A stretch of DNA of 64,000 nucleotides, from IMG/VR virus record IMGVR_UViG_3300050015_000702; one strand, 5' to 3'. Position numbers and translations under genes: made by a program. Source of the stretch: a virus. Under the pieces are notes generated by a model, which was not told the origin of the DNA, did no database searches, and worked only from the letters and a program-made list of their open reading frames with translations. Numbering within the stretch: position 1 is the first letter of the stretch; every line of letters starts with the position of its first letter. Positions 10,864 to 42,687 of the stretch are shown in pieces.

Positions 10864-12707
10864 TGGCAAATATTTTTAAAGATTTTAAAGTACCTGGTCA
10901 CATATTAAATGTCCCTGGTATATTTCTAGATCCTACAAAAGGGATTACGAAAACATTTGATGAGCCAACCTATCTAACTTTTAGAGTGGAGTTTCTTCCT
11001 ATGAATACAAATATGGAATCCACAAACTATGATAGGATGCCAATGCCATTATTTAGTTTATCAGATGAAGATATTGATGTTCGTAACAATTATTCTGCTA
11101 TAAGTTATTTAAAAGATTCAAACGAAGTTGGCCGTGCTCAAATGATGGCTAGTTTTATCAATGGCTGGAATATAGTTCAAAATAATTTTCAGTGGTATTT
11201 TCAGGGAATTTCTAATTTAAATGATTTATTTGCTGTAGATCCTAAGAGAGGCATTCGTATAAGCACAGAGGGAAAAGTTACCATGTCAATGCTTGAAGGT
11301 CTTGACTGGAGAATTACTCACTTACTTAATCTTTACAGAAAAATTGCTTGGGACGATGTTTATCAAAGATGGATGCTTCCTGATATGATGAGATATTTTG
11401 CAATGAATATTTACATCACAGAATTCCGTTCATTCCATCAATCTTCATATACCGAACAGGCAGCTTTAGGTTCCGGCCCTGAATTAAGCGGTGAAATGGT
11501 TTTAAAAGTCATGGGAGATGTAATGCCTACTTGGGTTTTACATTGTGAAAGATGCGAATTTGATATTACTTCTCTAAACTCCTGGATTACTGATTTGAAA
11601 GTTAACGAAGAAACTATGACTGAAGTTACTTTCGATATTAAAGTTGGCCAGTTAACTGATGAGTATGTAAACCCTATTTTGGACTATTGGTATTGGGATC
11701 AGGATTTAAATGGTCAGAACAGAACAGCTGATGATCCATCCGGAGTTCTTAGAACTTCATATAAAAATAGACAAATTCAATTTTTAAATCAGGAAACAGT
11801 AGCTGGCGGGCCTCATACAGAAAATCATCCATTTATCGAAACTGGTGGTTCTGGAGCTTCAAATATATCAAATGCTCAAAAAGCTATGCAGGGTCCTTCA
11901 GCAGATCTTAATCCAGTAGATCCTGTTGGTTCTGGAGCTTCAAATATATCAAATGCTCAAAAAGCTATGCAGGGTCCTTCAGCAGATCTTAATCCAGTAG
12001 ATCCTGTTCAACCATCTACTTGGTTAGGAAATACTTTGACATTAGGAAAAGCATTAGTTAAAAACTTGGTGAATACTCAGGTTAATAAAGCCCAGGTTAC
12101 CAAGATTCCTGGATTAGGATTCTCATTTAATGAAGCTTTATCTGCAATTCAGAGTAAAAACATATTTGCAGTCTTTGCTCTTGCAAGGGAAGCAATTACT
12201 CAATCAGTTGCTAAAACAACTCCTTCGCAGGAACTTGATCATAAAATTATAGAACAAGGATTAAAAGCATTTCTTAGGGGAATTGCTCATTCACAAGCTA
12301 CGACTCCTCCAACTCAAGAACTTGTTAAAGCTGCAGAACAGATTCTCAATGATCGAGGTCAATGGCAAAAACTTATGGATTACTCATTAGCTACCGATTT
12401 GGTTTCAAGAGAAACAGGGGAAGTAAATATAACAAATGCTCTAAAGAATCCTAATACTGAGAGGGATATTGCCAAAATTGAAACAGGAGGATTTCTATCC
12501 TTTGCAACCGATGCAAATGGAAACACATTAGTTGGGAGTCCTATAATTGAAGCTATTCCTTCTAGTTTAGCAACATCAGGTCATATTAATGTTGGACCAA
12601 AACCATCTGTGGTACCAAGTGAAGCAACAGTAGGGGCATTACAAGGAAATACTCATCTATCATCTGCACCAAAAAGTGAAGCAACAATAGGAACTATACA
12701 AAAATGA
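10863..12707 (+). CDS. putative baseplate/tail-tube-related structural protein
   Basis: 614 aa, translationally coupled (TAATG) within the baseplate cluster. Confidence 0.45.
   Translation: MANIFKDFKVPGHILNVPGIFLDPTKGITKTFDEPTYLTFRVEFLPMNTNMESTNYDRMPMPLFSLSDEDIDVRNNYSAISYLKDSNEVGRAQMMASFINGWNIVQNNFQWYFQGISNLNDLFAVDPKRGIRISTEGKVTMSMLEGLDWRITHLLNLYRKIAWDDVYQRWMLPDMMRYFAMNIYITEFRSFHQSSYTEQAALGSGPELSGEMVLKVMGDVMPTWVLHCERCEFDITSLNSWITDLKVNEETMTEVTFDIKVGQLTDEYVNPILDYWYWDQDLNGQNRTADDPSGVLRTSYKNRQIQFLNQETVAGGPHTENHPFIETGGSGASNISNAQKAMQGPSADLNPVDPVGSGASNISNAQKAMQGPSADLNPVDPVQPSTWLGNTLTLGKALVKNLVNTQVNKAQVTKIPGLGFSFNEALSAIQSKNIFAVFALAREAITQSVAKTTPSQELDHKIIEQGLKAFLRGIAHSQATTPPTQELVKAAEQILNDRGQWQKLMDYSLATDLVSRETGEVNITNALKNPNTERDIAKIETGGFLSFATDANGNTLVGSPIIEAIPSSLATSGHINVGPKPSVVPSEATVGALQGNTHLSSAPKSEATIGTIQK
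11847..12008 (+). repeat. perfect 81-bp tandem duplication (GSGASNISNAQKAMQGPSADLNPVDPV x2)
   Basis: 11847-11927 is identical to 11928-12008, in frame. Confidence 0.95.
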
Positions 12708-13015
12708 GAGCCGAATTCATATTTGAAAAAGTAAATTTTGAACGAGGAAACGAATACGATCCTCTTCGAACTCTTAATATTGGTCATAAGAAAACTGAGA
12801 AAGAGCTAGAAGCAATGTATAAAAAAGTTTTACACTTTAATCTTGGCGTTGAAAGAAAAAGTTTCTCCAATGAAATTAGTGCTGCCATTCCAGAAAGATT
12901 ATTAGCAAGCTGTGGTTGGGGAAATGCTTTTAAATGCTTTGAGGAAATGTGGCCAGAAGAAATAGATAAATTCGATAGAATTCTTACAAAATATTACAAC
13001 AAATTTAAAGAGTAA
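12704..13015 (+). CDS. FER-tag cargo protein (1 tag)
   Basis: N-terminal IFEKVNFERGNEYDPLRTLNIG. Confidence 0.75.
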   Translation: MRAEFIFEKVNFERGNEYDPLRTLNIGHKKTEKELEAMYKKVLHFNLGVERKSFSNEISAAIPERLLASCGWGNAFKCFEEMWPEEIDKFDRILTKYYNKFKE

Positions 13016-13785
13016 TGGAAAGTCTACACTTACAAATGAAAGATCTACATGATAATGACTGGTTAGGCATTATCGAAAACAATGTGGATACACTTTTTTC
13101 AGGACGAGCACAAGTAAGAGTATTTAGGTTATTTGATAACTTAAATTCTAAGGATCTTCCATGGGCTGTTCCAATTAACTCCACTATATTTGCTGGAGAT
13201 GGAGCAGGGTCAATTTCGACTCCAAAAATTGGTCAGATTGTAAGGGTTCAGTTTAATAACGGGGACTTATATTCTCCAGAATACACAACTATTCAAAATA
13301 TTGATACTCAGCTTATAGATGAGATCAAAAATGATTACGATGGAACCCACGTTCTACTTTATGACCCCGATGAAGAATTAAACGTTATTTATCAGCGTCA
13401 AAGAGGATTTCAAATGTTTTATCGTGGCAGTTTTATTCAGATCTCTCCAGATAATATGATTACGATTCAGCATGCTAATCATGAATCCCTAATCCAGCTA
13501 AACGGAGATAAGATGAGTATTGTTACCAAGAATGAAATTGCTATCTCTGCCGCAGCTAAAGTAGAAGTTACAGCTGATGAAGTAAAGGCAGCAGGTAACC
13601 AAGTAACTAAGCTAGGACCTGGGCCTTATAACCATGCTGTAATGGCAGAAATATTATTTCCTTTGTTACAAACTATGGCAACAGCAATTGATGCTAAAAT
13701 GCCTCAAACACCAGGAGTCAATGTTGGCTTAGTAAAAGCAGCTCAACAAGCAGCTACCTCAACTAACGTATTAATTTCGCAGTAA
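13015..13785 (+). CDS. baseplate central spike, gp5/VgrG-like OB-fold, without a lysozyme domain
   Basis: WLGIIENNVD...GRAQVRV...LPWAVP...STPKIGQIVRVQFNNGD.YSPEY followed by a short beta-helix-like region. Confidence 0.85.
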   Translation: MESLHLQMKDLHDNDWLGIIENNVDTLFSGRAQVRVFRLFDNLNSKDLPWAVPINSTIFAGDGAGSISTPKIGQIVRVQFNNGDLYSPEYTTIQNIDTQLIDEIKNDYDGTHVLLYDPDEELNVIYQRQRGFQMFYRGSFIQISPDNMITIQHANHESLIQLNGDKMSIVTKNEIAISAAAKVEVTADEVKAAGNQVTKLGPGPYNHAVMAEILFPLLQTMATAIDAKMPQTPGVNVGLVKAAQQAATSTNVLISQ

Positions 13786-14912
13786 TGAAAATAGTTAGAG
13801 AATCTCTAGATTTTGAAAGAAGTCAGAACCCGATAGACGCTTTGAATATTGGCATAAAAAAGAAGATCTATAGCCAATTAAGATCTTTTGTGGATAATGA
13901 AATGATTGGGGGAACAGGATTAGGGGATCCAAGATTTATGTATAGTTTTTATCCATCAGGTGAGGATTCTTTTTGTTTTTATGGCGAGGGAGGAAAAAAC
14001 TATATTAATGGCTTGATTAAAAAATATGGTTTGGATCAGTATTTCGATGGTAAAGGCCAAATTGAGGAAAAAACCTCTAATAGATACACGATTAGATTTA
14101 AAGTAAAAAAAGAATTACAACATATATTTGAAGAAATCCCTACCTCTTTTCATTTTATAAAAATGGAAGAGAGTTTGGACTTCGAAAGACACAAAGAACC
14201 ATTTGATGCATTGAGTCTTGGAATATACGACAAAGTTAAAAAAGGATTAAATTGTCTTAGATTATCCCCAGGAATTGGTTCAATTAGTATCATGAGTAAC
14301 AAAGATGAAGTCTGGTTGAGTATCGATGACTATAATGGCAACGGAAGATTCACGGATTATCTTTACCAATGTCTTAGCCCAAATTATTTTGAAGGTGAAG
14401 TAGAACATAGGGATATTATGAAAAGAGGGGGAAGTTGGAGAAGTAAATTCATAGTCTATGTTAGTTCACCGTATTGGGATGCTTTCAAAGCAGCTTTTGA
14501 TCCAAATGGAGGTATAAGGGAATCTGTTAATTTTGAACGTACAGGAGAACCTCTTAAAAAACTTGGAATAGGAAGATCTACTCCAGGTGTTGGACAATTT
14601 GCTCCTGCTTATTTAGAAGGAAGAGGACTTTGCAATGTATTAAAAGTTGAAAAGTATAAAGATCTTACCCCCGAAGAAAAAGATTCTTTAGCCATTTGGT
14701 ATGGCTCTTCCTTGATGCGAAATGAAAAAGACAAAACGAATCCAAATCAATTATGGGTAGAAATTATGCCAGAATTAAAACGTAAAAGTGTAACTGAAGT
14801 TGAAGAAGAGTGGATGGATGTTGATCGATTTGAAATATTGAAGAAAAAAGGCAGATGGATGGATCCGCAATGGAGGAAATCATACAAGAATCCTTATGAG
14901 CCTAAAAAGTAA
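13785..14912 (+). CDS. FER-tag polyprotein (3 tags)
   Basis: VRESLDFERSQNPIDALNIG; MEESLDFERHKEPFDALSLG; IRESVNFERTGEPLKKLGIG. Confidence 0.8.
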   Translation: MKIVRESLDFERSQNPIDALNIGIKKKIYSQLRSFVDNEMIGGTGLGDPRFMYSFYPSGEDSFCFYGEGGKNYINGLIKKYGLDQYFDGKGQIEEKTSNRYTIRFKVKKELQHIFEEIPTSFHFIKMEESLDFERHKEPFDALSLGIYDKVKKGLNCLRLSPGIGSISIMSNKDEVWLSIDDYNGNGRFTDYLYQCLSPNYFEGEVEHRDIMKRGGSWRSKFIVYVSSPYWDAFKAAFDPNGGIRESVNFERTGEPLKKLGIGRSTPGVGQFAPAYLEGRGLCNVLKVEKYKDLTPEEKDSLAIWYGSSLMRNEKDKTNPNQLWVEIMPELKRKSVTEVEEEWMDVDRFEILKKKGRWMDPQWRKSYKNPYEPKK

Positions 14913-17900: not shown

Positions 17901-18426
17901 ACAGGATGCTATCAGTGGTGCTCCAGTTAAAGATCATCCAGATCCTACTATTAAATCCATGGAGAAAGCAGAACAAACGATTAATAGTCAGTTCGACAAA
18001 TTAGACGTTATAATTCAGAAAGTAGATGACGTTTTGGCACCTTTACCCATAAATACTAAGCCAGAAACAGCGAACTTTGCTTTTACAATTAAGAATCCAA
18101 AGCCAGTTATTAACTTTGCCAAAGATATTGATCAAACTATTGCTCAAGGCCCCTTAGATAAAATCATTGCCAATTTTGAATTGAACAATGCAGACTTTAT
18201 GAATACGAATTATGGCAGTGTATTAAGTAAGAGCGTAGTCAATTACAAATCTTATAAAGCTACCTTATCTGCTTCCATGACAACATTAATTCAAAAAGAT
18301 CCATTCCCAAAATATGAGAACTTAAAACCGACTAATTTACCATACATGGCATTCTTACTTAAATCATGGGCACCGAAAGGAGCGCAGACGTATGGTTTTC
18401 CTGGCGGGAATCCACTACCTCTTTAG
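14896..18426 (+). CDS. large helical/coiled-coil protein with a Pro-rich hydrophobic block, probably virion-associated
   Basis: 1176 aa; WSTGFPPPIGPIPFPTVYIPI...GLTITGIYPFPWILFVN followed by a long coiled coil; lies downstream of gp5. Confidence 0.5.
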   Translation: MSLKSKLIAAALGVLNAEITKFKNLLKKPNLLIALKLAALAAVTPLLIYLQKLLQKKIQGLLSKSSDPALAYIQDPNNITDDDVNNYVQHSPDLQQFIHYVDQDFGNSLTSDILLQCEDPSAYDNQANALMALLGDQNLTEDDFMRVADEQSDLDLKVETSRIATDLAGLISKINGILPWAFMAYMIILKVKEFLTQNDYPSPYRGKYIQRLIRTLTAVLKARIRQEGQAASKIIPGAVGLAKDELNQINTMLNTLKKLDTIIVGSLLATFVYLRNRHILQQAALKSFAETAGAQSCIPTPRMLTDAETTPDPSAYTQTTPTLAQLETCLTSPDTNIVPHTPIEDKLLNLSCEVVLNPDVSINQVSGEDTATKALFENKTLKPFKILVSANDTLDVHKPFAVFDGNNIYPPLNGVVEKIDVNKIYTMDIVEPANNDIGEKISKLQDKYAEQVDIKGFIREFYIPSFYPVMLKDAPGIDPSINAEQLKKVIYKTGGVITRWNGIMTSYKAQIKDWQKRTNTIAGKDNVKTKCDQENVEGIKTELDNSDDTLFSNLNSDAGNGIAQARVTAADPKELVMIEFYFTLLQDLIAYYDQTSQTVVTFIKQIQDFLTNRYFLDQYSLQKIKDKVNSYCKELAQGMNFTTKNTPDFYAVMKTKYDAATNSQPNQKSQAAKDYLTSLTTKNTKLSSTQIDAEINLILFLFNFSLTIQDLLKTGFAPKITRLQETQNEGIWIEGYFNNLWKRYKALPGEIDQATADLDALNQVFESYSIINIDNEEYRWYTLDTDPCEAPDESDPYLSPKTKMRYSDKKYWLRYCAFATLASVVNPATAWSTGFPPPIGPIPFPTVYIPIKAFQAKWGMIVLGLTITGIYPFPWILFVNWSTQNHIPLADPVTLIQNEVDVLKKEITKQIQNFKKITLKNYLKKLKVDVDNAKAVVDELVIEKRNHKAAKPKRDRTVKPYIDIPRYTDALAKWNTNGAAIDERTLDAKRKQMVAETKYKIVQDAISGAPVKDHPDPTIKSMEKAEQTINSQFDKLDVIIQKVDDVLAPLPINTKPETANFAFTIKNPKPVINFAKDIDQTIAQGPLDKIIANFELNNADFMNTNYGSVLSKSVVNYKSYKATLSASMTTLIQKDPFPKYENLKPTNLPYMAFLLKSWAPKGAQTYGFPGGNPLPL

Positions 18427-19216
18427 CTTTTTTCTCTGCCCAGTATTTTCGTATTCCATTTATTAGATTTTGTTTCACATCTGGACGCTGCATAGCATTT
18501 CGAGTTAGAATTTTTATGTTATCTCTTTCATTCTGATTCTCAAATCTTTTTTGAAGTTTCTTTTTAATTTTTTCTTTTGTCTCTAAGCTTTTTTCGCCAA
18601 GTCCTTTTCCCCTTCTATTTTCAGATATTTTATTTTTTATTATTATAGCTTCTTTTTCTCCATGCCTTTCTTCGAAAGTCTTATCTAAATATAAATCTTT
18701 TAAAAACTCCTTATTTTCTAAAGTCATTTTTTTACCAAATCTAGGATGTAATTCTCCTTCTTTTCCATACATTGGATTATTCTCTCCGATATTAGCTAAT
18801 CGGTAATTTTCTCTAGATTCTAAAGATTTGGGTTTTCCTTTTAATTTTTTTCGAATTATTTCTTTTGTAGCTTCCGTATGATGATAAAATTTAACACCTT
18901 GACCCCCTTCCGTCATATTATACCCAAATTCTTTTCCAAATTTGCTTATGCATGTTTTGTTTGTTTCAATCCAATATATTTCTCTTTCATTTAATTTATT
19001 AATTAAATCAATTCTTTCTGCAAATTCATAAGCTTCCACAGTCTCCCATAAAATCTGATCCTTATATTTTTTTAAAGCATTATGAAAAATAGTATTATCG
19101 TTCGAACTTCTAGAAGAATAATGTCTTTTAACCCTTTTTTCTAAACTACCGATAGATTGCCCATAATATTTTTTATTTGATGGACTTGTTGCACAATAAA
19201 TAATCCCCTTATACAT
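18359..19216 (-). CDS. GIY-YIG homing endonuclease with NUMOD3-like repeats
   Basis: GIIYCATSPSNKKYYGQS, LNEREIYWI, GYNMTEGG, HTEATKEII, GENNPMYGK. Confidence 0.9.
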   Translation of the reverse strand: MYKGIIYCATSPSNKKYYGQSIGSLEKRVKRHYSSRSSNDNTIFHNALKKYKDQILWETVEAYEFAERIDLINKLNEREIYWIETNKTCISKFGKEFGYNMTEGGQGVKFYHHTEATKEIIRKKLKGKPKSLESRENYRLANIGENNPMYGKEGELHPRFGKKMTLENKEFLKDLYLDKTFEERHGEKEAIIIKNKISENRRGKGLGEKSLETKEKIKKKLQKRFENQNERDNIKILTRNAMQRPDVKQNLINGIRKYWAEKKAKEVVDSRQENHTSALLSVPMI

Positions 19217-19221
19217 AATTT

Positions 19222-19237
19222 ATTTATTTTATATATC
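19222..19237 (-). promoter_or_regulatory. late-promoter-like motif GATATATAAAATAAAT
   Basis: Minus strand, 5 nt upstream of the endonuclease ATG at 19216. Confidence 0.55.
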
Positions 19238-19308
19238 AAAAACATCTTTTGGATTTTCAGCTTTTCCCCCTCCTTCAGAATTTCCGGGATTTACGCCATT
19301 ACCCGTCG

Positions 19309-19323: not shown

Positions 19324-19332
19324 CTTCCAACT

Positions 19333-20073
19333 ATGATGAATTTCCATTTTTACCCAGAAAAACTTGTTTGCGAATCTCTTGAAGAATTATACGGAGAAAA
19401 CGAAATAGAATATTCGAGTGGCGAACAAGCTGCTATATCAAGAGGCAATGATGTTATAACCAAGCCACAATTAGCTGCCATGTATTTAGCTGCGAAAGAT
19501 GCTATGGGAAGGTCGGAAGATACTCAAGGAAGAGGAGATAGCGGGTTGACACGTAATGCACTAAAAATGGGCAAAGAAACTATCACAGACTGGCAAAAAC
19601 TATCTGCTCCAAGACTAGGAGATGTATTAGATCTTAAACCTCGTACAGTTAGCTACACATTGTCGAAATTCAGACTTTTATTACAAAATAATCGTGAAGG
19701 AGTCTTTGGTAATGATTTATATGATAAGATAATTAATGCGTTTGATGAATTTGAAAAAATGTCGCCAGCAGATGTATATTCATTAGCTTCGGAAGCTGTA
19801 AACTTGGATGCAACTACTGAAAGATCCGACAAATGGGCTGAGGATACATCCGATCAAGGTAGAAAAACAAGAGAAAAAATACAGAAAAGAAATGCTAAAA
19901 TTATTCAAGCTACCTATGATTTATACAATCAGCTTAGGGGAGTTTTGGGTGAAAAAGCACCAAAAGCAGTTGTTAATAAACTTTCAACAGAATATAAAAT
20001 ATTCCCGGAAGATCTTCGCACGATAATTAAGCAGGGTCTAAAGAATGATCAGAATTTAGCCAGAAAATTCTAA
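19333..20073 (+). CDS. helical protein with a KLVCESL leader and a possible HTH
   Basis: EKLVCESLEE leader shared with 33576..34814 and 36236..37792; LSAPRLGDVLDLKPRTVSYTLSKF is HTH-like. Confidence 0.55.
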   Translation: MMNFHFYPEKLVCESLEELYGENEIEYSSGEQAAISRGNDVITKPQLAAMYLAAKDAMGRSEDTQGRGDSGLTRNALKMGKETITDWQKLSAPRLGDVLDLKPRTVSYTLSKFRLLLQNNREGVFGNDLYDKIINAFDEFEKMSPADVYSLASEAVNLDATTERSDKWAEDTSDQGRKTREKIQKRNAKIIQATYDLYNQLRGVLGEKAPKAVVNKLSTEYKIFPEDLRTIIKQGLKNDQNLARKF

Positions 20074-20079
20074 GTAAGC

Positions 20080-32163: not shown

Positions 32164-32222
32164 TTTTATTTTATATATCTCTGTTTAAATGGAACCTCCC
32201 CCAAAAAGATATATAAAGAAAA
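32164..32222. promoter_or_regulatory. divergent late-promoter-like pair
   Basis: Minus GATATATAAAATAAAA at 32164-32179 (to gp25) and plus GATATATAAAGAAAA at 32208-32222 (to the lysozyme). Confidence 0.6.
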
Positions 32223-32230
32223 CCCATGGC

Positions 32231-33028: not shown

Positions 33029-33524
33029 TTTCCTTTTTATAATATTTCATGAGCATATTTTTGGTTTCTTTATTCTTAGCATTTGAAACAAAGACTCCAA
33101 AATTTGTAGCTCTCATAGCTCTTTTGCCATCACTATCGTGAACACTTATATTTCTTGTTGAAAATTCACCTTTTAACTCAGAAGTCCCCTGATCAAGTTT
33201 AAGTATTTCTTCTCTAAAAAGATTGGGAATTGTAAGAACTGCTTTAACTGCTTGCATATTCCCATCCTGTATAGAAATCCAAAGCAATTCGTTATTGTTA
33301 TCAGAAGCATCTATTATATCTCCATTGACCCACTTCTTTCCATTCATGCCAACAATATATGGAAATACGAAGTCTTTCTTCTTTTTTAAAGCCCATTCCC
33401 ATACTTGATAAAAGTTTTCATAATCAAACACACTATCCTCAGCTTCCATCATTGTTTTAATCTTGGGCCCAAGACCAATCCCCAGTGCTTGTTTGGGGTC
33501 CATATCCCTTTGAAAGTGATTCAT
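33021..33524 (-). CDS. FER-tag protein lacking the Glu leader, with an ankyrin-like repeat
   Basis: MNHFQRDMDPKQALGIG; NNELLWISIQDGNMQAVKAVL. Confidence 0.65.
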   Translation of the reverse strand: MNHFQRDMDPKQALGIGLGPKIKTMMEAEDSVFDYENFYQVWEWALKKKKDFVFPYIVGMNGKKWVNGDIIDASDNNNELLWISIQDGNMQAVKAVLTIPNLFREEILKLDQGTSELKGEFSTRNISVHDSDGKRAMRATNFGVFVSNAKNKETKNMLMKYYKKEIK

Positions 33525-33528
33525 ACAG

Positions 33529-33536
33529 CAAATGTA
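33529..33536 (-). promoter_or_regulatory. Bacteroidota-type -7 element TACATTTG
   Basis: Matches TAnnTTTG, 4 nt upstream of ATG 33524; no perfect -33 TTTG at canonical spacing. Confidence 0.4.
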
Positions 33537-33575
33537 CAAAATACTTCCCAAGTAAAAAAATGTTTTGCAAATTAT

Positions 33576-34814
33576 TTATGCTCCAGAACCTTTGGATTTG
33601 AATTCTTCATATTCGGTGGCATTAAGAGTTCCCCTGGCGACAACTCTTACTTGTTCGAGAACCCACTCAAATTGCGAATTTACCTTTTTGGCTTTTAATA
33701 AGTAAGGTTCGAATAATTTTAAAATTTTGGCTCTGCCTTCGGGGTCTTGTTTAGGTTTCGGAAGAGTATATGACTCCCCAATACCAAATTTATCCTTTCC
33801 CCATATTCTTTGAAGGGTAATAAAGTCATAATCGTTAAAAGCGTCAACATCTTCCCATCCACCTGTATTTCCGGTTATTACTCCAACAGATTTAAGAGCA
33901 TTGATTATTGTTTGATGAATTGGTCCTTCCTGAGAGAAAGCAAGATATAAATCTCCATTGTTCATCACAACTCCTCTAACCCCTTTATCAAATCCTTCTA
34001 GGGTCTTAGGATTTTTATAAATTGGAACGTTTTTAACCTTTGTAATCGGTTTACCATATTTTTGAATAAAGTATTGTTTATCAAATTCTTCGTCTGGATC
34101 AGCTATTCCAAAATGCTGGGTCATATACTTATCTGCCACCCCTTCACTAGTAAGAGAAGCCATATTCCAAGCTCTCCTTTCCTGATATTTAGGATGTGTT
34201 GAACCCCATCCCTGGGGTACTTTCTTTTTCTTTAACATTGGAGATTTGGCATGTTCTTTACCCAATTCTTCTTCTGATCTGGTTCCCCCAAATTGATAAT
34301 CTTTAATTGGTATAAGTTTAGATTGAAATTGACCCTGATGTCTCCAAGGGCCGGAAAGCATAATACCATTATCATCTGTAACAATATCCGAATTGCCCGG
34401 TATAATTTCAACTTGCCATTCTGGATCATTTATAATTCGGTAATCATCATTTGGGTAATAATACTTGAGTTCATCGCCCATTTTCTTAACCATATCAAAG
34501 AATTCTTCTTTGTCAGGATATTCCCAGAAACTCATAATTTTATGATAAAACCATAGTCGGCCCGGAAACATGCCATCTTTTCTAGATACTCCATAAGGGT
34601 GTGTAGATTTTGCAGGACCAAATTGAAATTTTCCTTCTCCGTCTATCCAAAATGGATGAGCATCTTCGCTTTCATAGTCCAATTCAAAATTATCCCCCTC
34701 AACATCTTTGCCAGCATCAGAAGGATAACCATCTGGGTCATACTTTCCATTAAGAGATAGCCAGTCTGGACTCTCAAATAATTGGTCTAGCGATTCGCAA
34801 ACTAGTTTTTTCAT
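33576..34814 (-). CDS. hypothetical protein with a KLVCESL leader
   Basis: MKKLVCESLDQLFESPD; possible internal boundary at LTSEGVADKY. Confidence 0.75.
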   Translation of the reverse strand: MKKLVCESLDQLFESPDWLSLNGKYDPDGYPSDAGKDVEGDNFELDYESEDAHPFWIDGEGKFQFGPAKSTHPYGVSRKDGMFPGRLWFYHKIMSFWEYPDKEEFFDMVKKMGDELKYYYPNDDYRIINDPEWQVEIIPGNSDIVTDDNGIMLSGPWRHQGQFQSKLIPIKDYQFGGTRSEEELGKEHAKSPMLKKKKVPQGWGSTHPKYQERRAWNMASLTSEGVADKYMTQHFGIADPDEEFDKQYFIQKYGKPITKVKNVPIYKNPKTLEGFDKGVRGVVMNNGDLYLAFSQEGPIHQTIINALKSVGVITGNTGGWEDVDAFNDYDFITLQRIWGKDKFGIGESYTLPKPKQDPEGRAKILKLFEPYLLKAKKVNSQFEWVLEQVRVVARGTLNATEYEEFKSKGSGA

Positions 34815-35776
34815 TATTCTATATCTCCCATAGCATTGTACAATGCATCATTTATAACATCTGGTTCCCAGTCTCCCATCCATGCACTACCAGAAGGCAC
34901 AGTCCATTTTATTTTTTCATCACCAGTAGCAATACAATATGATAGAAGTTTTAATCCTTTTTTAGAAATTTCTCCTACGAGAATTTCTTTCTCATTATAT
35001 TCAGGTTTTTGAGTAAAATCAAAATGTTTCATAATAGCACTTTGAAGACTTTTTAGACATGCATCTTCATCTGCTACTGACTGTGTTTCTGAAAATGCTC
35101 GCTGAACAGCTTCTTTTAAAGTTTCCAGCTCTTCATTATCATTTATCTAGTTTAATAAATCGTCTAAGCTCGTAACATTTTCTGGGGATGCCCCCATTTC
35201 TATAGCAGTTGTCTTTAAATCTTCAAGAGCTGGGACATTTCCTTTTTCTACGGTTTTGCTTAAATACCAGCCGGATTGAGTAATATCTTCATACTCTTCC
35301 ATATCTCTTTCAAAATGTTCGTAAGAATCTTCCCCGCATAAAACATCTCCTATAAATTCTAAACTAACATCTCTACTCTGCGAATCAAAAAGATCTCTGA
35401 AATCAAGCCAAGCACCAAAATGAAGATAATATTTGTCCCCTTCTACTGTATAGCCAAAATCATTACCCATAATAGGAAGGTAAGGAATCCATTCGATATT
35501 ATTTTGCTTCAAGACATAATAAAGATTTTCATCAGCCTCTGTAGCATATTTTTTAGGCATGGTAATTAGAAATTGAGCCCACTTTTTACGAGTCTCTGTA
35601 TCTAATTCTAAATTTGAATTATCCAAAATATCATAAACCCAGGATCCCGGCTGTTCACCAGAATGTTCCTCCATAAACTCATTAATGGTTGCTTCAAGGC
35701 CAATTCCAAGAGTTTCTTTACTCATAGGTCCCCGTTCAAAATTTTGAACCTCTAATATTGATTCAGGAACTAGCAT
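34814..35776 (-). pseudogene. FER-tag protein interrupted by one in-frame TAG (35149-35147): nonsense allele or read-through
   Basis: MLVPESILEVQNFERGPMSKETLGIG...DDLLN*INDNEELETLKEAVQRAF...; 38 sense codons join the TAG in frame to the 34814..35032 ORF. Confidence 0.75.
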
Positions 35777-36219
35777 ATAATCATTTCTCCAACCTGACAA
35801 AGTTTTTGTATTTGTTCTTTAGTAAATTTGGTAGTATTTCTTTTGATGAAAAAGTTTCCATCAACACGTTTTGGACAGCCTTCCAGATCCTCGATTTTAT
35901 TACCATCAACCATAAAATCCCCATGAATAAAATACGGGCATCCTTTCATAGTTTTAAGATATTGGTCTCTGATTAAAAAATCTCCAAAACATTCATTGAA
36001 CTGAATAAATTCAGGTAACTCATACATAATGTTTGAACTCTTTGGCATAATAAAATCTCTTTTAAGATCCACAGTCCAGTCTGAATTGATTGTGTAAGAT
36101 ACAGAAGGGAGATGCTGTCTTAACCATGCATCCAATTCTTTTTTCTTACCCAATTTCAAAACATCAGAGGGGTTTTGGCCCCTCTGAAATTCCAATATTC
36201 TTTCTCGAACAATATTCAT
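35770..36219 (-). CDS. FER-tag protein with a short LRR-like domain
   Basis: MNIVRERILEFQRGQNPSDVLKLG; ELPEFIQFN..LKTMKGCP..IEDLEGCP. Confidence 0.8.
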   Translation of the reverse strand: MNIVRERILEFQRGQNPSDVLKLGKKKELDAWLRQHLPSVSYTINSDWTVDLKRDFIMPKSSNIMYELPEFIQFNECFGDFLIRDQYLKTMKGCPYFIHGDFMVDGNKIEDLEGCPKRVDGNFFIKRNTTKFTKEQIQKLCQVGEMIIC

Positions 36220-36235
36220 TTATCTAGATTATTTT

Positions 36236-37792
36236 CTAGAAGATCTCTTTGTACTTAGCGATAAATGCGTCGATACCTTTTTTGAATTTGTCTCTTCCCT
36301 CAACTTCACCTAACTCTTCGTGAATGTATGGGTGAATTTCGATCATCATCTTTAAACCACGGGTTGCAAGTGAAGCATTATCAAGTCTGATTAGGTACTC
36401 AACATAGTTTTCAAATTCCTTGGGAGTTAGGTCTCTTCCTCTTGTTGCTGTACAAACTAATGAAATAAGAGCATTTGCTTCTGACTGATCATATCCTGAA
36501 CCAGCTTTCTTAGGCATACGTGCTTTTCCTGGGTTAGTTAAAACTTCCTGTATGTCTTCTTTCTTAAATGTTTCAAGGAGTTTTAAGAATGTTGCAAATT
36601 CAGTTGCAATATCAACACCAACATCAGAACCAACTACGCCTGTAATATCTTTAATTGTAGGTCTGTAACCTTCATCTTTCGCATCTTGCATTAAAGCTGC
36701 AATGTTCTTTGAAGCTGCTTCCCATGAACGTGGGGATGCAAAGATACTCTTTTCTGGATCATCATCAAGTGTATAGAAATATTCCTGGTTGAATTCTAGG
36801 AAGTCAAGGATACGTGGGTCAACTTTATCAATAGCCCATTCTTTCCAACCTTTGAAATCAGGTATGTAGTTAACCTGGGAGAATCTGTTACCAAGAGCGG
36901 TAGAGAAGTTCTGAACACCTTCTGGATCGTCACCGGCTCTGTTAGAAGCTGATACGATTGCCCATTTGTCTCCAAGTTGTGCATCCCCAATAATTCTTTC
37001 ATCGATAAGTTTTAAACAAGTATTCTGAACTGAACCAGATGCTCTTGAGAGCTCATCTAAGAATAAGATTCCACCTGCACCAGCATTACATATTTCATTT
37101 CTACGTTTGTTTTCTTCTGGGTCATTGCTTTTTATAAAAACAGGTAACCAAGCTTTAGGAATATCTCTTGCTTTAATTTCTTCTGCAACAACGTAAGTTG
37201 CTGGTAATGACCAGTCATCTGGAGCCATTTTAGAGGTCTGAACATCAATTAGTCTCCCCTTTGAATTAGCTGATAGAACTGCCTTAACAATAGCGGTTTT
37301 ACCAATACCAGGTGCTCCCCAAATCATAAGAGGTTTAGAGGTTGGGTTTTTGATAGCCATTCTAATTCTTCTATAAAGATCTTTCTTGTCAACATTAAGA
37401 ACGTTCTTATCGGGGTGATCTAGAGTTATTCGAGCTTCATTAAGATTTTCATTAGTTTTATTAGTCTTATTGCCCGAATCCTCCCCACCTCTTTTTGACA
37501 TAATCTGTGCTTCAGTAAGAGAACTTAGTCCTGGTTCAAGATCTTTATCGGCTTGAGAAGGAAGATAGGAAACACCTTTATATAAGGATCCTGCCTTGGT
37601 TAAAATACCAACGTTTACCGGAGCTATAGCTTCTGTAACGGGTTTACCATTAAACATAAAGAAAAAGAACTTACCAAGTTTCTGGAAGAATTTCTTTACA
37701 GCTCCTATTGCTTTGCTAAATATAGCTTCGTTTAGATCCCCTTTTTTGATTTGATAATCTTGTAGGGTTTCGCATACTAATTGTTTCTTCAT
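36236..37792 (-). CDS. MoxR-like AAA+ ATPase with an N-terminal extension
   Basis: Walker A GAPGIGKT, Walker B ILFLDE, SASNR, ALGNRF, SPRSWE. Confidence 0.9.
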   Translation of the reverse strand: MKKQLVCETLQDYQIKKGDLNEAIFSKAIGAVKKFFQKLGKFFFFMFNGKPVTEAIAPVNVGILTKAGSLYKGVSYLPSQADKDLEPGLSSLTEAQIMSKRGGEDSGNKTNKTNENLNEARITLDHPDKNVLNVDKKDLYRRIRMAIKNPTSKPLMIWGAPGIGKTAIVKAVLSANSKGRLIDVQTSKMAPDDWSLPATYVVAEEIKARDIPKAWLPVFIKSNDPEENKRRNEICNAGAGGILFLDELSRASGSVQNTCLKLIDERIIGDAQLGDKWAIVSASNRAGDDPEGVQNFSTALGNRFSQVNYIPDFKGWKEWAIDKVDPRILDFLEFNQEYFYTLDDDPEKSIFASPRSWEAASKNIAALMQDAKDEGYRPTIKDITGVVGSDVGVDIATEFATFLKLLETFKKEDIQEVLTNPGKARMPKKAGSGYDQSEANALISLVCTATRGRDLTPKEFENYVEYLIRLDNASLATRGLKMMIEIHPYIHEELGEVEGRDKFKKGIDAFIAKYKEIF

Positions 37793-37800
37793 CGTTGTCG

Positions 37801-37818
37801 TTATTTTTTATATTTATC
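37801..37818 (-). promoter_or_regulatory. late-promoter-like motif GATAAATATAAAAAATAA
   Basis: 8 nt upstream of the ATPase ATG. Confidence 0.45.
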
Positions 37819-38536
37819 ATTTGTTTTCATCTATTGATTTCTGAATTGATGCTCTTCTTGCCGAACTTATTTCTGTTCTTGGATTATTAAGAAGTAATTC
37901 GACCATTGGAATCCAGTTTGGGGCTTTAACCCCTACTTTATTCAATTTAGATACTGCACCTATTAAAGCTTGCGATGGGTTAACTCTAGGATCTTTTAAA
38001 AGTTCTTGAACGATTGCAAGATTATTTTCCAAAGCAGCTATTTTAATAATGTAATTAGGTACCTGCGTTTCATTAAACTGATTGTCTAATACCATTTTAG
38101 AATCGGCTGGATTAACTCTTGAGTCAGCTAATAAAACTTTAACAGCTTCTAAGTGATTTTTTTCGACGGCATTAGCTAAAGCTATGTTATGATGATCAGC
38201 TGGGTTAACTCTTGGATCCGATAAAAGTATTTGAATTATTTCAGCATTTCCTTCTTTAGAAGCAATATCTAAAAAATGATTTCTTCTTGCTGATGGATCC
38301 ACAGAAGGATCAGTAACTAAAAGTTTAACAATATCAGGTCTGCCAGCTTTGATAGCAGATTCCAATATCCAGGGCTTGTCTTCCATGGTTAGTTTCTTCG
38401 AAAAAGTATTCATTGTAGATTTTTTATTGTATTCTTCAATAAAATCTCCAATCAATTTTTCTCGACCAATTCCCATGGCAGCTTTAGGATCGCCACCACG
38501 AACAAAATGAGCAATATTTTCTTCTACTAGTTTCAT
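37817..38536 (-). CDS. FER-tag ankyrin-repeat protein
   Basis: MKLVEENIAHFVRGGDPKAAMGIG; repeats A..G..EI+..LL.DPRVNP. Confidence 0.85.
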   Translation of the reverse strand: MKLVEENIAHFVRGGDPKAAMGIGREKLIGDFIEEYNKKSTMNTFSKKLTMEDKPWILESAIKAGRPDIVKLLVTDPSVDPSARRNHFLDIASKEGNAEIIQILLSDPRVNPADHHNIALANAVEKNHLEAVKVLLADSRVNPADSKMVLDNQFNETQVPNYIIKIAALENNLAIVQELLKDPRVNPSQALIGAVSKLNKVGVKAPNWIPMVELLLNNPRTEISSARRASIQKSIDENK

Positions 38537-39477
38537 ACTTGACCAGATCTCCTTAGTTCATCGAATCTTTTTATATCAACGGGTTTCATATAATTTATTT
38601 TATCTCTTACCCTTTGATCTCTTACTAAAACTTTGCAAACTTCGATATGATGATTTGCTACTGCTTGAGCCAAAGCCCAATTATTTCTATATGATGGATC
38701 CACTCGTTTGTCTTTCATAAGAAGTTCTACAACTAAAGGAAATCCTTCTTTTGCAGCCTGTCTTACACAATATTGACGTTCATCATTTTTATATCGTTTA
38801 CCATCTATAGTAGTATCTGCTGGGTCCACTTCAGGATGGGTTAAAAGTAATCTTACTAATTCAAGCTGGCCTCTTCTAGAAGCTTGTTGAATAGCTTCAT
38901 TTGATCTTGTGTTTGCATTTGTACATCCATTCTCTAAAGCCCATTTTTGTAGTTTTGGAGAACCATACTCTGTGGATAAAACCATGCATCTATTAACTGT
39001 GAGCTGCTCTTTTGCTTTTTCAACTAAGGTATCTTCATCCATTTGACGCAATTCTATCCAAGTGTGTTCATTAATCCAAGTCTTTGGAGCATTCCATATT
39101 TCATCCATTCTATTAAATGTGAAAAATACTCTAACCCACCCGGCAGCATTGTGTTCTAATTTATTGGGATTCATTGAGGGGACTTTGTCCATGATTTTAG
39201 TCATCAAATCATACTTGACTGAATCTTTTGGAGTATTTCCATATTCATAAATGAATTTCCTCGTATCAATGATATACATCTTGTCTTGAGTAACTTCACC
39301 CATATTTGTTGGAAACATCGAAAAATCCCCCTTCTTTACCAATGAATCATATGCTATCTCTTTCAGCAGTTCCTGAAATACTGCAATTCTTCCAACTCCA
39401 ATTTGTTCAACTGGTGTTCCCTCACGAGTAAACCCCTGAGCTTCATTAAACCCTATCAAACTTTCCCTAACGATCAT
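38533..39477 (-). CDS. FER-tag ankyrin-repeat protein
   Basis: MIVRES...FNEAQGFTREGTPVEQIGVG; ASRRGQLELVRLLL, AAKEGFPLVVELLMKDKRVDP. Confidence 0.85.
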   Translation of the reverse strand: MIVRESLIGFNEAQGFTREGTPVEQIGVGRIAVFQELLKEIAYDSLVKKGDFSMFPTNMGEVTQDKMYIIDTRKFIYEYGNTPKDSVKYDLMTKIMDKVPSMNPNKLEHNAAGWVRVFFTFNRMDEIWNAPKTWINEHTWIELRQMDEDTLVEKAKEQLTVNRCMVLSTEYGSPKLQKWALENGCTNANTRSNEAIQQASRRGQLELVRLLLTHPEVDPADTTIDGKRYKNDERQYCVRQAAKEGFPLVVELLMKDKRVDPSYRNNWALAQAVANHHIEVCKVLVRDQRVRDKINYMKPVDIKRFDELRRSGQV

Positions 39478-41087
39478 TAATTTACACTAATTTGCTTACC
39501 AAATGGTTGTTTGAATTGTGGATTGTCATAGATAACCCAAATGAATTTATTCCAGAATGGTGGTTTCTTAGGCATTGGAGCGAATCCATCTGTAAAATAA
39601 ATGCAGAGGGAAACCCTATCTTTTAAGTGTTCATGAATCCAATCAAGTGGTTTTTGGAATGATGTACCACCACCGCCAGAAACATTCTTAGGAATATAAG
39701 GTTTTCCCATTCTTTTAATAGTCTGAACACTCTTATCATCAACTCCATCATCAAAGAAAGCAACGGTAATTTTGTTGATCTTTTTAGAGAAAATGATTTG
39801 ATTGATTTCATTAAGAATCTTTTCAAGAGCTTCTTTACCCATTGAACCAGATACGTCCACCATTACAACAATATTTTCGATAGCATCCATTTTATGTTTT
39901 TCCCCATAACGAAGAAATTCTTTTCCTAAATGCTTTTTGTTTCCCAATCTTTGGTAAACTTCTGGAGATAATGCTGTAGCAACATATCTTCTGAATAGAT
40001 TTTGCCAGTTTACGTCTCCCTTATGTAAACGATATAATGCTTTGATTAAAGCGCTTCCTTTTCCTTGGCCTGCTTTCCCTGAAGATTTCTCAGCACGTTC
40101 GAGCATCTTAGCACCTTCAACTCTCCATTTATCCGTAGCATTTTCATCTGGACCCGATTCATCTTCACCATAACCGGATTTTTTAGCAAGTTTTTTACCT
40201 TGATCCTCTGTCATAACCCCACCTGTACCAGCTGGATCTTCATCCTCCATCTGTTTGTAGATTTCATCTTCGCCTGATTCACCAGCTCCACCTATAGGTT
40301 TTTCTCCTGGTTTACCGGGTTTTCCTTTACCTTTTCCTGGTTTTCCTGGCTGACCATCGCCTTCTCCTTCTCCTCCTTCTCCTTCGCCTTCTCCTTCCCC
40401 GCCTTCACCTGGATCTCCTTGATCTGGAGGACCGCCTTCACCCTTACTTGACCCCTGATTACCTTTACTATTTGGATTCTGAGGTGGTTTTTGAAATTTA
40501 GGATCCTTTTTAATTTGTTCGTAAATTGTTTCAACTGGCAAATTAAGAAATTGGGGATCATAAAGTCCGCCAAGAGCTTTAAGGAATGCTTCATTGAAGT
40601 CACTTAAAGTATCTATAATGATTGCGTTAATTTCATAGTCACCAGCATAATTGAAGATCTTTGGATTTCTTCCTTTGATCCTCTGCATGTGAAGAAGTAC
40701 ACAGTGCATAATTTCATGAATGATGACAAAGATTTTTTGTTCCCATGTTAATTTATTGGCAAACATTGGGTTAACAAATAAACGGGTACCATCTGTAGCC
40801 ATCGTAGGAACAAGCCAAGTATAAATTGGAGTAAATCTATGAACATAGGGAGCAAATAGAGGGGATTGAGAAACAATAGCTGTTTTAGCACTTTCCATTT
40901 CTCTTTTCAAGTGGCCCATATCTATTTTAGTACCATCTTTGGCATAAACATAAGCATAGTCCTCAATCTTATTAGATCTTGGTGTTGCTTCACCTTGCGG
41001 TCTTATCTGCGCAAATTTGTCTTCTGCAGTTGGAGCAGGACCTGCTTCATTTAAAAAATCCTCAAATTGTGGATAAAATCTTTCCAT
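39477..41087 (-). CDS. DUF2201-type metallopeptidase-like + vWA domain protein (MoxR partner)
   Basis: TMATDG, HEIMH, G/E/K-rich linker, MIDAS DVSGSM, GGGTSF, YFTDG. Confidence 0.9.
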   Translation of the reverse strand: MERFYPQFEDFLNEAGPAPTAEDKFAQIRPQGEATPRSNKIEDYAYVYAKDGTKIDMGHLKREMESAKTAIVSQSPLFAPYVHRFTPIYTWLVPTMATDGTRLFVNPMFANKLTWEQKIFVIIHEIMHCVLLHMQRIKGRNPKIFNYAGDYEINAIIIDTLSDFNEAFLKALGGLYDPQFLNLPVETIYEQIKKDPKFQKPPQNPNSKGNQGSSKGEGGPPDQGDPGEGGEGEGEGEGGEGEGDGQPGKPGKGKGKPGKPGEKPIGGAGESGEDEIYKQMEDEDPAGTGGVMTEDQGKKLAKKSGYGEDESGPDENATDKWRVEGAKMLERAEKSSGKAGQGKGSALIKALYRLHKGDVNWQNLFRRYVATALSPEVYQRLGNKKHLGKEFLRYGEKHKMDAIENIVVMVDVSGSMGKEALEKILNEINQIIFSKKINKITVAFFDDGVDDKSVQTIKRMGKPYIPKNVSGGGGTSFQKPLDWIHEHLKDRVSLCIYFTDGFAPMPKKPPFWNKFIWVIYDNPQFKQPFGKQISVN

Positions 41088-41100
41088 TTGTTATATTTTT

Positions 41101-42273
41101 TTAATTATATAGATTACCTAAAACTTTGATTGTAGCTCTAATTTGCCAATCCTTCCATTTCTTTGGACCTCCGTAAATTGAAAAATCCCCGCGAACTTCT
41201 TTAGGAAATCCTCTTAAAGATTCAAAGCTATTATTTGCAGCATAAAAACCTCCTTTGACCAAATTAAAATTGATAAATTCGGGCAATTCAGATAATCCTT
41301 TTCCCACTATATTTATATCGTCAAAAGCATCGATAGTTTCATCAGGGTTAATCTTATATTCCGTTTCAGGTATTCCCATAGATTTAAACCAGCTTTTAAT
41401 CTGGTAATGTTCTCCAACTTCAAGTTTTTCAAGCGGTTCTGCATCTCTTTCAAAATTTACACCTTCATTTGTCTTTTTAGTATCTACCCAAATCGTTTTA
41501 GATAATACTTTGCAAACTTTTGTAACATCTCCTCTAGTAAAGTTACCGGGATTTTTATAAGCAATAAAATTTCCTTCAATAAGTTTTGGAGCATGTTCTA
41601 ATGTCATAAGTTCATTATCAAAACACTTAAAATTACCTTTATAATTAGCTGTTCCTTTAACTTTTATTGGACATCCTCGAAGAGTTGTAAGACGGTTTTT
41701 AGAAATATTAAATCCGCCCCAAACAACATTAAACTGAATATATGAGGGTAATTCGCCACCTTCAACTTTACCTTCTAGATTTACAACCGCACCATTCTTT
41801 TTATCCGAATAGTCAATAGTTAGATCTTCATTTAAATTATAAAAATAGAGTTCTTTTTCATGCAACCATTTTTCTATAAGAACTTTTTTGCCAATTCCTA
41901 GTGATGCTTTAGGATCTTCGTAACGTGTAAAATTTTGAGATTCATTAGTTTTAGCACGAACATTTAAATATCCGATTAACCCCCCAAGCGCATCTTTAGC
42001 ATTATCATAATAATCTGTTCGATAATCTGTCGTCACAGCAACCCATCTTTTTCCATCCCCATCTCCATCACTTTTTGATTTCAAAATTAATACTGGTTGT
42101 GATAAATCTCGTAAAATGCTAACAATATCGAAATTTTGTTCAATAATATCCAAAGGCAAATCCCATTCGGTTTCTTCCACTATTTTTTTGTCTAGAATTT
42201 TCTTCCCAATTCCCATAGAAGCTAAAGGTTCTTGACCACGTTCAAAATTAATATTTTCTTTCACGATTATCAT
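41101..42273 (-). CDS. FER-tag polyprotein (3 tags; two LRR-like cargos)
   Basis: VKENINFERGQEPLASMGIG; TNESQNFTRYEDPKASLGIG; TNEGVNFERDAEPLEKLEVG. Confidence 0.8.
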   Translation of the reverse strand: MIIVKENINFERGQEPLASMGIGKKILDKKIVEETEWDLPLDIIEQNFDIVSILRDLSQPVLILKSKSDGDGDGKRWVAVTTDYRTDYYDNAKDALGGLIGYLNVRAKTNESQNFTRYEDPKASLGIGKKVLIEKWLHEKELYFYNLNEDLTIDYSDKKNGAVVNLEGKVEGGELPSYIQFNVVWGGFNISKNRLTTLRGCPIKVKGTANYKGNFKCFDNELMTLEHAPKLIEGNFIAYKNPGNFTRGDVTKVCKVLSKTIWVDTKKTNEGVNFERDAEPLEKLEVGEHYQIKSWFKSMGIPETEYKINPDETIDAFDDINIVGKGLSELPEFINFNLVKGGFYAANNSFESLRGFPKEVRGDFSIYGGPKKWKDWQIRATIKVLGNLYN

Positions 42274-42276
42274 CTT

Positions 42277-42687
42277 TTATTCGTTTAATTCTTCTACTAT
42301 AACATATCCGCCAACTTCGCATACTTTTCTAATATCCTCTGCAGGGGGAGGGGGTAAGTTTACAACGCCGGGATAATATACGGTCAACTCTCTGCCAACA
42401 TAACTCGGAAATCCTTTTAATGCTAGTGGGGATCTAACGAAACATTTGAAGTCCATACGTATAGTTCCAAATTTAATATACTCTGGAAACGTATTGAATA
42501 AAGTTTCGCTCAAGTCTATATCTTCTGCATCTATCTTTAAATTTTTTGTAAGAATAGGCCCTATAATGTTATTAAATTGCCTCATTTCTGCAATCCATTT
42601 TAAGATAAGCGGTTTTCGACCAATCCCCATTGAAACTACCGGTTCCTGACCGCGTTCAAAATTATGTATGCTTTCTCGAACTATCAT
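42277..42687 (-). CDS. FER-tag protein with an LRR-like cargo
   Basis: MIVRESIHNFERGQEPVVSMGIG; FPEYIKFG...LKGFP. Confidence 0.8.
   Translation of the reverse strand: MIVRESIHNFERGQEPVVSMGIGRKPLILKWIAEMRQFNNIIGPILTKNLKIDAEDIDLSETLFNTFPEYIKFGTIRMDFKCFVRSPLALKGFPSYVGRELTVYYPGVVNLPPPPAEDIRKVCEVGGYVIVEELNE

Follow-up and report, generated by a model that had tools for sequence, protein, structure and literature searches.

A conserved 20-residue peptide at the head of unrelated protein modules in an uncultured huge phage: a candidate protease site and retained handle on head-packaged cargo

Why would a phage place one and the same peptide of about 20 residues in front of many unrelated small protein domains? 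The question is raised by a stretch of 64,000 nt of IMG/VR record IMGVR_UViG_3300050015_000702 (hereafter the window), part of a large, uncultured, myovirus-type phage with a G+C content of 33–36%, in which 22 copies of the peptide, here called the tag, are present in 10 open reading frames (ORFs). Our analysis suggests, with a probability that we put at about one-half, that the tag joins a cut site to a handle retained by cargo packaged in the head, some of it made as polyproteins. Specifically, the tag would be a portable linear peptide having two functions and carried by many unrelated small proteins: its first residues, [VIL]-x-E, would be the cutting site of the phage's T4-type (S77) prohead protease, while S-[VLI]-N-F-E-R-G-x-D-P-K-x-[AS]-M-x-I-G would remain at the new N-terminus of each module, where it could serve for docking to the scaffold, the capsid, or the protease, or as an ejection signal. 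ORFs with several units (3 and 9 in the window, up to 12 elsewhere) would be polyproteins that are incorporated into the prohead, cut into modules of ~12–16 kDa, retained within the capsid, and probably delivered into the host by ejection.

When the six-frame translation of the window was searched with a profile made from 19 copies that a pattern had matched, it gave exactly the 22 copies in 10 ORFs that an earlier note, made from the letters of this DNA alone, had listed: nine in 20080, three each in 13785 and 41101, and one each in 12704, 33021, 35147, 35770, 37817, 38533, and 42277 (ORFs are named by their lower coordinate). The scan of the 64 kb yielded nothing credible outside those ORFs, and a looser pattern gave 19 matches, whereas after shuffling it gave 0.045 (DNA) or 0.015 (residues of the ORF products). 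The literal motif of the earlier note was too narrow, matching 12 of the 22 copies, as several of the copies have a one-residue insertion or a substitution. Its description of the units was right in that every copy begins an ORF or an internal unit, and too tight in size, with units spanning 100–307 amino acids (aa) rather than 100–150 aa. The hydrophobic-x-Glu context that it reported in front of the tag is real and proved to be part of the conserved block itself. Likewise, its failure to recognise the tag as a described family agrees with our searches: no family in Pfam, PHROGs, or NCBIfam covers the tag region, matches being confined to the ankyrin and LRR (leucine-rich repeat) parts of the cargo, and PDB sequences gave 0 matches at E ≤ 1.

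After refinement, the consensus reads [VIL]-x-E-S-[VLI]-N-F-E-R-G-x-D-P-K-x-[AS]-M-x-I-G. The window copies all have F, R, and G, and at least 90% of them have E and P; the copies in 12704, with a two-residue insertion, and 35147, in which the Pro is lost, are weak, degenerate variants. Column frequencies were obtained from 522 internal tags of other metagenomes: the position two before Glu is [LIV] in 74% (81% including M), followed by x (N 26%, K 20%), E (97%), S (77%), [VLI], N (47%; D 17%), F (100%), E (81%), R (100%), G (83%), x, D (71%), P (93%), K (66%), x, [AS], [ML], x, I (73%), and G (97%). No conservation is present before the first hydrophobic residue, where the sequence is rich in K, G, S, P, N, and D and linker-like. 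At the DNA level the copies have diverged. The invariant Arg is encoded by five codons from both codon families (CGT, AGA, AGG, CGA, and CGC), Pro and Gly each use all four codons, and pairwise identity is 41% at third codon positions versus 69% at second positions, indicating that selection acts on the peptide and not on the DNA, and ruling out a DNA repeat, a recombination site, or a recent duplication as the cause of the motif.

On the plus strand, 12704–13015 encodes a single unit of 103 aa with its variant tag at 12713–12814 (leader MRAEFIFE, then KVNFERG); the ortholog lies at 99557–99868 of G001, an IMG/VR record of 132.8 kb that is syntenic with the window over 0.2–47 kb. Three units make up the 375-aa product of 13785–14912 (tags at 13788–13889, 14157–14258, and 14508–14609), and nine units make up the polyprotein-like, 1105-aa product of 20080–23397, with tags of 102 nt starting at 20089, 20461, 20908, 21241, 21577, 22003, 22333, 22720, and 23035 and with a common cargo, type A, in units 1, 4, and 8. 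The remaining seven ORFs are on the minus strand. The single-unit ORF 33021–33551 (tag at 33438–33539) likely has its true start at the Met of M-N-H-F-Q-R-D, i.e. it would carry a leaderless tag. The single-unit ORF 35147–35800 (tag at 35663–35764) carries the weak variant ILE/VQNFERGPMSKETLGIG, where the slash marks the candidate cut, and its G001 ortholog carries the canonical tag VRESLDFERGLTPKQSLGIG. A tag followed by a short domain resembling leucine-rich repeats (LRRs), cargo type B, is encoded by the single-unit ORFs 35770–36219 (tag at 36112–36213) and 42277–42687 (136 aa; tag at 42586–42687), while 41101–42273 encodes three units of types A, B, and B in 390 aa (tags at 42169–42270, 41854–41955, and 41377–41478). 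Finally, the tag precedes ankyrin repeats in the 239-aa product of 37817–38536 (tag at 38432–38533) and an unassigned region plus ankyrin repeats in the 314-aa product of 38533–39477 (tag at 39355–39456), the N-terminus of which, MIVRES..FNE/AQGFTREG, has two candidate sites.

The cargo that follows the tag is diverse. In 37817 and 38533, Pfam identified ankyrin repeats following the tag, which confirms one of the cargo types of the earlier note, and a census of 81 multi-tag proteins found ankyrin repeats in 9, ExoX-like_C in 2, GNAT in 1, and LRR in 1, most having no domain. When the tags were stripped from 683 units, the remainders fell into 220 BLAST clusters (132 singletons). Two cargo classes were modelled with AlphaFold, using alignments of window units and IMG/VR units. 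The type A model (21241–21576, unit 4 of the nine-unit ORF) has a mean predicted local distance difference test score (pLDDT) of 84, with residues 1–18 mostly below 50 and 10-residue blocks from about residue 30 mostly above 90; the type B model (35770–36216) has a mean of 86, with residues 1–12 below 50 and blocks from residue 21 at 82–97. In both models, a helix begins at the conserved Pro and continues into the first helix of the cargo. Type A is modelled as a small alpha/beta domain; a resemblance to HicB-N or dsRBD-like folds is weak (best Z 5.2, with nothing convincing in fold searches), and the ESM Atlas gave 'viral hypothetical' matches only. Type B gave weak matches in a fold search, all of them to LRR domains, so that the model, whose alignment includes 42277 and units 2 and 3 of 41101, supports the short LRRs that the earlier note had proposed; a Vibrio phage protein that lacks any tag has the 22-residue repeat of type B as well. 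Judged from these sequences and models, the tag is not part of one fold, the cargos being ankyrin, LRR-like, alpha/beta, and more than 200 other clusters. In particular, a tag with pLDDT below 50 on two different folds does not behave as a structural repeat integral to either.

To place the tag beyond the window, we compared a 34-column tag profile with 1.84 billion representative proteins (clusters of 50% identity). The search identified 1,187 proteins at E ≤ 1e-3 (393 of them at E ≤ 1e-10), in which as many as 12 tags occur in one protein. The best 154 proteins hold 661 tags with a median spacing of 117 aa, and the first tag is N-terminal in ~137 of the 154. All carriers that could be traced or checked come from metagenome sources and have no informative names. 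A degenerate DNA pattern located 78 IMG/VR loci; four large IMG/VR records hold 20–37 tags each at a CheckV completeness of 16–34%, indicating genomes near 400 kb. In a pattern scan, 596 Gb of prokaryote genomes yielded one real match, on a 2.9-kb contig from a digester metagenome-assembled genome (MAG); a match in a Polaribacter MAG was judged to be due to chance. The former contig, MWBV01000048.1, was assigned to a Diapherotrites archaeon from an anaerobic digester and is probably a mis-binned phage fragment; it holds real tags together with degenerate variants that read E-S-x-x-F-x-R-G and then continue differently.

Deposited phages gave no match at the DNA level in a megablast search with 21 kb of the window, nor in a tblastn search with the nine-unit protein, and a search for related loci with the 41101 protein likewise gave none. 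At the protein level, the Lak megaphages come closest (37.8% identity across 771 aa, the product of 56801–59116), followed by huge metagenomic phages with LR7565xx accessions and then by PAU, PTm1/PTm5, pT24, MA9V, and MaF61. The tag profile found no tag in Lak-A1, LR756500, LR756501, PAU, MaF61, or one Vibrio phage. A literature search on the motif letters and on huge-phage polyproteins found nothing relevant, and the Jug phage paper makes no mention of such a tag. The tag is restricted to one clade of uncultured huge T4-like phages.

The most informative comparison concerns the Glu near the start of the tag. In 244 distinct tags from the IMG/VR loci, Glu is present in 198, with V, I, L, or M two residues before it in 92%, and is shifted by one residue in 7. 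Another 26 tags have no Glu, and all 26 have a Met 1–3 residues before the Phe and read as leaderless starts, mostly M-N-F-E-R-G, several of which directly follow a stop codon. The remaining 13 are mostly register errors, further leaderless starts, or tags with Glu elsewhere; in three of them the listed context shows no Glu and no Met close by. As almost every Glu-free tag opens its protein, [VIL]-x-E is retained in nearly all tags with polypeptide in front of them and is dispensable at the N-terminus, the pattern expected of a cleavage site that exposes a near-terminal F-E-R-G. Such a pattern would be unlike a merely optional part of a binding motif. Leaderless tags can also occur in series: in G002, another tag-bearing sequence, which has almost only homing endonucleases in common with the window, four consecutive small ORFs at 105.5–108 kb begin M-N-F-E-R-G.

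The site agrees with the specificity of a known enzyme class. S77 proteases cut after Glu, at L/I-x-E in T4 (PMC9026906) and at A/S/G-x-E in phiKZ and SPN3US (PMC5694885), and T4 gp21 cuts a Glu-Ala bond in gp22 (PMC9026906; PMC5694885). With [VIL]-x-E followed by a small residue, the start of the tag matches the L/I-x-E rule of T4 gp21. Two other cleavage sites were considered and rejected: self-cleavage at Asp-Pro, as the Asp is present in 71% only and is replaced by Glu, Thr, Asn, or Ala in most window copies, and an adenain-type site at M-G-I-G, the register of which does not fit.

Short leaders, either M-I-V-[KR]-E or M-[RK]-A-[KQ]-x-[VI]-x-E, precede ORF-initial tags. These leaders are only 5–8 aa long, compared with ~10–20 aa for the removed propeptide that carries the targeting information in T4-type head-internal proteins; the long conserved block follows the candidate cut, and internal units have no conserved sequence upstream of it. 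A second leader class, M-K-K-L-V-C-E-S-[LI], heads two untagged proteins, 19333–20073 (plus strand) and 33576–34814 (minus strand; start MKKLVCESLDQLFE), recurs as LVCE-T in a MoxR-type AAA+ ATPase, and is conserved in the G001 orthologs. The 19333 leader, K-L-V-C-E-S-L, has the form [LI]-V-x-E-S-L in common with the start of the tag, and the G001 ortholog of 19333 starts MKKLVCESLEEL. The MoxR ATPase (36236–37792, minus strand, inside the tagged cluster) has an N-terminal extension of ~120 aa with LVCE/T and two LNE/A sites that are kept in G001. A protein with a DUF2201 zincin (HEIMH) and a vWA domain (39477–41087, minus strand, inside the same cluster) has ...FLNE/AGP at its N-terminus, and the phage lysozyme (32189–33028, plus strand, untagged) has an N-terminal extension of ~130 aa with three [LIV]-N-E in its first 40 residues, two of them kept in G001; the lysozyme may be a head-packaged, protease-processed substrate. 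Tail and baseplate proteins that could be recognised begin with M-A-D or M-A-N and are without such leaders.

A protease of the expected type is encoded in G001. Upstream of the block shared with the window, an 844-aa ORF (60768–63302) has Peptidase_S77, the family of T4 gp21, at its N-terminus (PF03420: 55.5 bits, E 3e-16, above the curated cut-off), fused to a scaffold-like tail of ~680 aa that is rich in [LIV]-N-E. The fusion protein contains nine [LIVM]-N-E versus 0.9 expected (P 5e-7), the strongest enrichment among 210 ORFs. The adjoining gene encodes a gp23-family capsid protein with MKQLNE/AQ... and ...HALNE/AEMGG, i.e. LNE/A at residues 4–6 and 41–43. In the protease ORFs of Lak-A1, LR756500, and LR756501, [LIVM]-x-E is enriched about two-fold and [AGS]-x-E is not. 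Together, the [LIVM]-x-E enrichment, the LNE/A sites of the capsid protein, and the S77 identity make it very likely that the protease of this lineage has T4-like specificity. The S77 domain lies in long open frames in Lak-A1, LR756500, and LR756501 too (595–811 aa).

Comparison with G001 also reveals how the units move. Most untagged genes are 45–85% identical between the two sequences, tagged genes 30–56%. Units 1–3 of 41101 correspond to units 3–5 of a five-unit ORF in G001, and unit 1 of the same G001 ORF and unit 5 of the nine-unit ORF, which is 20 kb away in the window, are orthologs with 52% identity. The slot of the nine-unit ORF is occupied in G001 by several shorter ORFs, and the three units of 13785 face four in the G001 counterpart. 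Units that are free in one phage and fused in another, and that shift between arrays, therefore behave as independent cassettes.

We infer cleavage at the Glu, a location in the head, ejection, and a role for the retained part from these comparisons, and the cut is better supported than packaging or ejection. The proposal of the earlier note, a prohead-protease site at the Glu with a handle left on the mature N-terminus, gains from the S77 protease of G001, from the L/I-x-E-like sites, and from the Glu-free tags at protein starts. Neither the protease nor the MoxR–vWA pair is specific to the tag: among five tag-free relatives, S77 is present in four, DUF2201 in three, and the MoxR/vWA pair in Lak-A1, LR756500, and LR756501. 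The tag is therefore an innovation added to an older system of head maturation. The fullest form of the proposal, with dozens of effector modules per genome, polyproteins of up to 12 units, and a 17-residue handle that docks in the capsid and/or guides ejection, we put forward tentatively, as a possibility that falls short of even odds.

Several points weigh against a retained handle on packaged cargo. The conserved block lies after the candidate cut, whereas in T4 the targeting information lies before the cut and is removed, and no precedent is known to us for a conserved block that is retained after the cut. The motif [LIV]-x-E is short, and an abundance of L, I, and E is natural in coiled-coil scaffolds. 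The S77 protease was identified in G001 and not within the 64-kb window, and its presence in tag-free relatives means that the protease alone does not explain the tag. Cargo units are mostly acidic (median pI 5.6), and T4 internal proteins are basic; charge is mixed among the units and uninformative in itself. Finally, every carrier is an uncultured metagenomic phage, known from sequence alone.

Among the alternatives, the one that survives best, although we consider it unlikely while not negligible, is that the whole 20-residue block is a processing cassette only, the residues after the Glu being a recognition surface for the protease on the leaving side, one that secures clean release of modules from polyproteins and has no later part in docking or ejection. 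The flexibility of the tag in the models fits such a role, the M-[RK]-A-[KQ]-x-[VI]-x-E leaders of ORF-initial copies could be real targeting peptides that are removed as in T4, and the Glu-free rule is compatible with any cleavage model. However, leaderless M-N-F-E-R-G proteins, from which there is nothing to cut off, retain the full downstream block, and known S77 proteases require just a three-residue motif (PMC9026906).

An unlikely second alternative is that the tag stays uncut and serves as a docking strand or linker by which modules, one at a time or as beads on a string, are anchored to part of the virion, for example the baseplate hub, the lumen of the tail, or the surface of the capsid. 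Such a role would leave unexplained why [VIL]-x-E is retained in almost every tag with polypeptide in front of it and is lost only where the tag opens the protein. An uncut docking tag would resemble the N-terminal markers of cargo effectors of the type VI secretion system. The 12704 and 13785 ORFs lie directly upstream and directly downstream of a gene for a gp5-like hub OB domain (13015–13785), forming one overlapping gene run with it, and ankyrin and LRR cargos are typical binding modules; but most tagged genes are not beside hub genes, and the recognised tail proteins have no such leaders.

The genes for the MoxR ATPase and the DUF2201 zincin–vWA protein flank the two tagged ankyrin genes, and the HExxH of the zincin is intact. 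It is conceivable, if quite unlikely, that the tagged proteins are unpackaged intracellular factors for host takeover or anti-defence and that the tag is a handle for other machinery, such as this pair or a host protease, as the pair is found among tagged genes here and in G001 and G003. Adjacency in the window and in G001, however, reflects shared synteny rather than independent recurrence, the pair is also present in three of the five tag-free relatives, and both of its members carry LNE/A-type leaders like that of the capsid protein. Lastly, a DNA-level process without any peptide function (a site of recombination or gene conversion, an RNA element, or tandem duplication of recent date) is highly improbable, for although units are shuffled between arrays at tag boundaries, third positions are 41% identical, synonymous codons are used throughout with both Arg families, the cargos between tags are unrelated, and 1,187 clusters at the 50% identity level share the motif.

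Same-strand gene runs of the window mix tagged genes with baseplate and neck genes; recognisable genes of the window include those for a gp6-like wedge subunit (29245–31143) and a neck-adaptor-like protein (43527–44261). The structural gene runs are interrupted by homing-endonuclease genes of the GIY-YIG/NUMOD3 type, of which at least seven are present within 64 kb (1977–2648, 3546–4220, 4223–4822, 18359–19216, 31128–31793, 42684–43517, and 56166–56801); G001 and G002 hold related GIY-YIG copies. An exact 14-mer, ATATATAAAATAAA, occurs at 5283–5296, 19223–19236 (minus strand), 32165–32178 (minus strand), 47156–47169, and 54237–54250, in each case 8–15 nt upstream of a gene start (5305, 18359, 31796, 47183, and 54262), and copies with one mismatch precede three GIY-YIG genes (1977, 3546, and 42684); it is likely a phage promoter of late type. 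A second motif, GAATAAATAAA, is located upstream of 19333 and 44268, at the heads of the runs that hold most tagged genes. Between the nine-unit ORF and the baseplate genes is a 515-aa LRR protein (23730–25277; LRR_4, E 3e-19) that has neither a tag nor a Glu leader. Also in the structural region, 45842–47080 encodes a 412-aa protein with three stretches of S1 RNA-binding domain, and a hairpin terminator follows this gene at 45733–45756.

If the tag is indeed a cut site and retained handle on packaged cargo, it would make a large, fast-evolving arsenal of phage-delivered proteins readable from sequence, with 1,187 clusters, most of them without a known domain, and would offer a route to listing candidate effectors of host takeover and anti-defence in huge phages that cannot be cultured. 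To our knowledge, no polyprotein strategy has been described before in tailed phages, nor a capsid-addressing tag that remains on its cargo, and this would be the first of each. Work on the T4 capsid targeting sequence (CTS) has already shown that parts of this kind are useful for loading foreign proteins into capsids, and a short portable tag with a three-residue cut site would be a natural plug-and-play cassette for phage-delivered proteins. Should packaging prove wrong, hundreds of unrelated domains would still carry one 20-residue peptide, which needs a common partner that is worth finding.

Of the systems known to us, the closest is that of T4, in which IPI, IPII, and IPIII, which are internal proteins, and the protein Alt carry a CTS that is processed by gp21 (MEROPS S77). 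In both cases a short N-terminal peptide is present on unrelated small proteins; the CTS ends in hydrophobic-x-Glu (L/I-x-E), like the first three residues of the tag; family members of both gp21 and gp23 are encoded in G001; the T4 internal proteins, of 8–20 kDa, are of a size with the tagged modules, of 12–16 kDa; and the rare GNAT enzyme among the cargos parallels Alt. There are differences as well. The CTS consists of 10 residues before the cut and is removed, whereas the 17 conserved residues of the tag lie after the candidate cut and would stay; T4 has about four such proteins and no arrays, whereas the tag is present in tens of copies per genome fragment and in internal arrays of up to 12; and the two peptides have no sequence similarity, the T4 proteins being basic and the tag cargos mostly acidic.

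The giant phages phiKZ, 201phi2-1, and SPN3US likewise have many head-internal proteins, in the form of inner-body and ejection proteins, and gp21-like proteases (gp175 and gp245), with paralogue families that have identical N-termini and with several cuts per protein, always after Glu (PMC5694885). Their motif is A/S/G-x-E (PMC5694885), in contrast to that of the tag, and their propeptides often exceed 100 aa. They also lack a common 20-residue tag, and unrelated modules are not arrayed in tandem. Encapsulin cargo-loading peptides provide a parallel for the retained part, as one short linear peptide directs unrelated cargos into an HK97-fold shell and stays on the cargo. These peptides, however, are usually C-terminal, involve no proteolysis, serve a cellular nanocompartment without portal or tail, and are unrelated to the tag in sequence, whereas the tag is N-terminal or internal and occurs in a tailed-phage context with baseplate, neck, and gp23-like capsid. 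The pp220 and pp62 polyproteins of African swine fever virus and the polyproteins of RNA viruses are alike in that several proteins of one ORF are split at a repeated short site; here, in contrast, the site is part of a much longer conserved tag, and we know of no described polyprotein of unrelated modules in a tailed phage. The arrangement would be a variant of the T4 CTS and internal-protein principle, in which the conserved information lies beyond the cut instead of before it and to which tandem arrays have been added.

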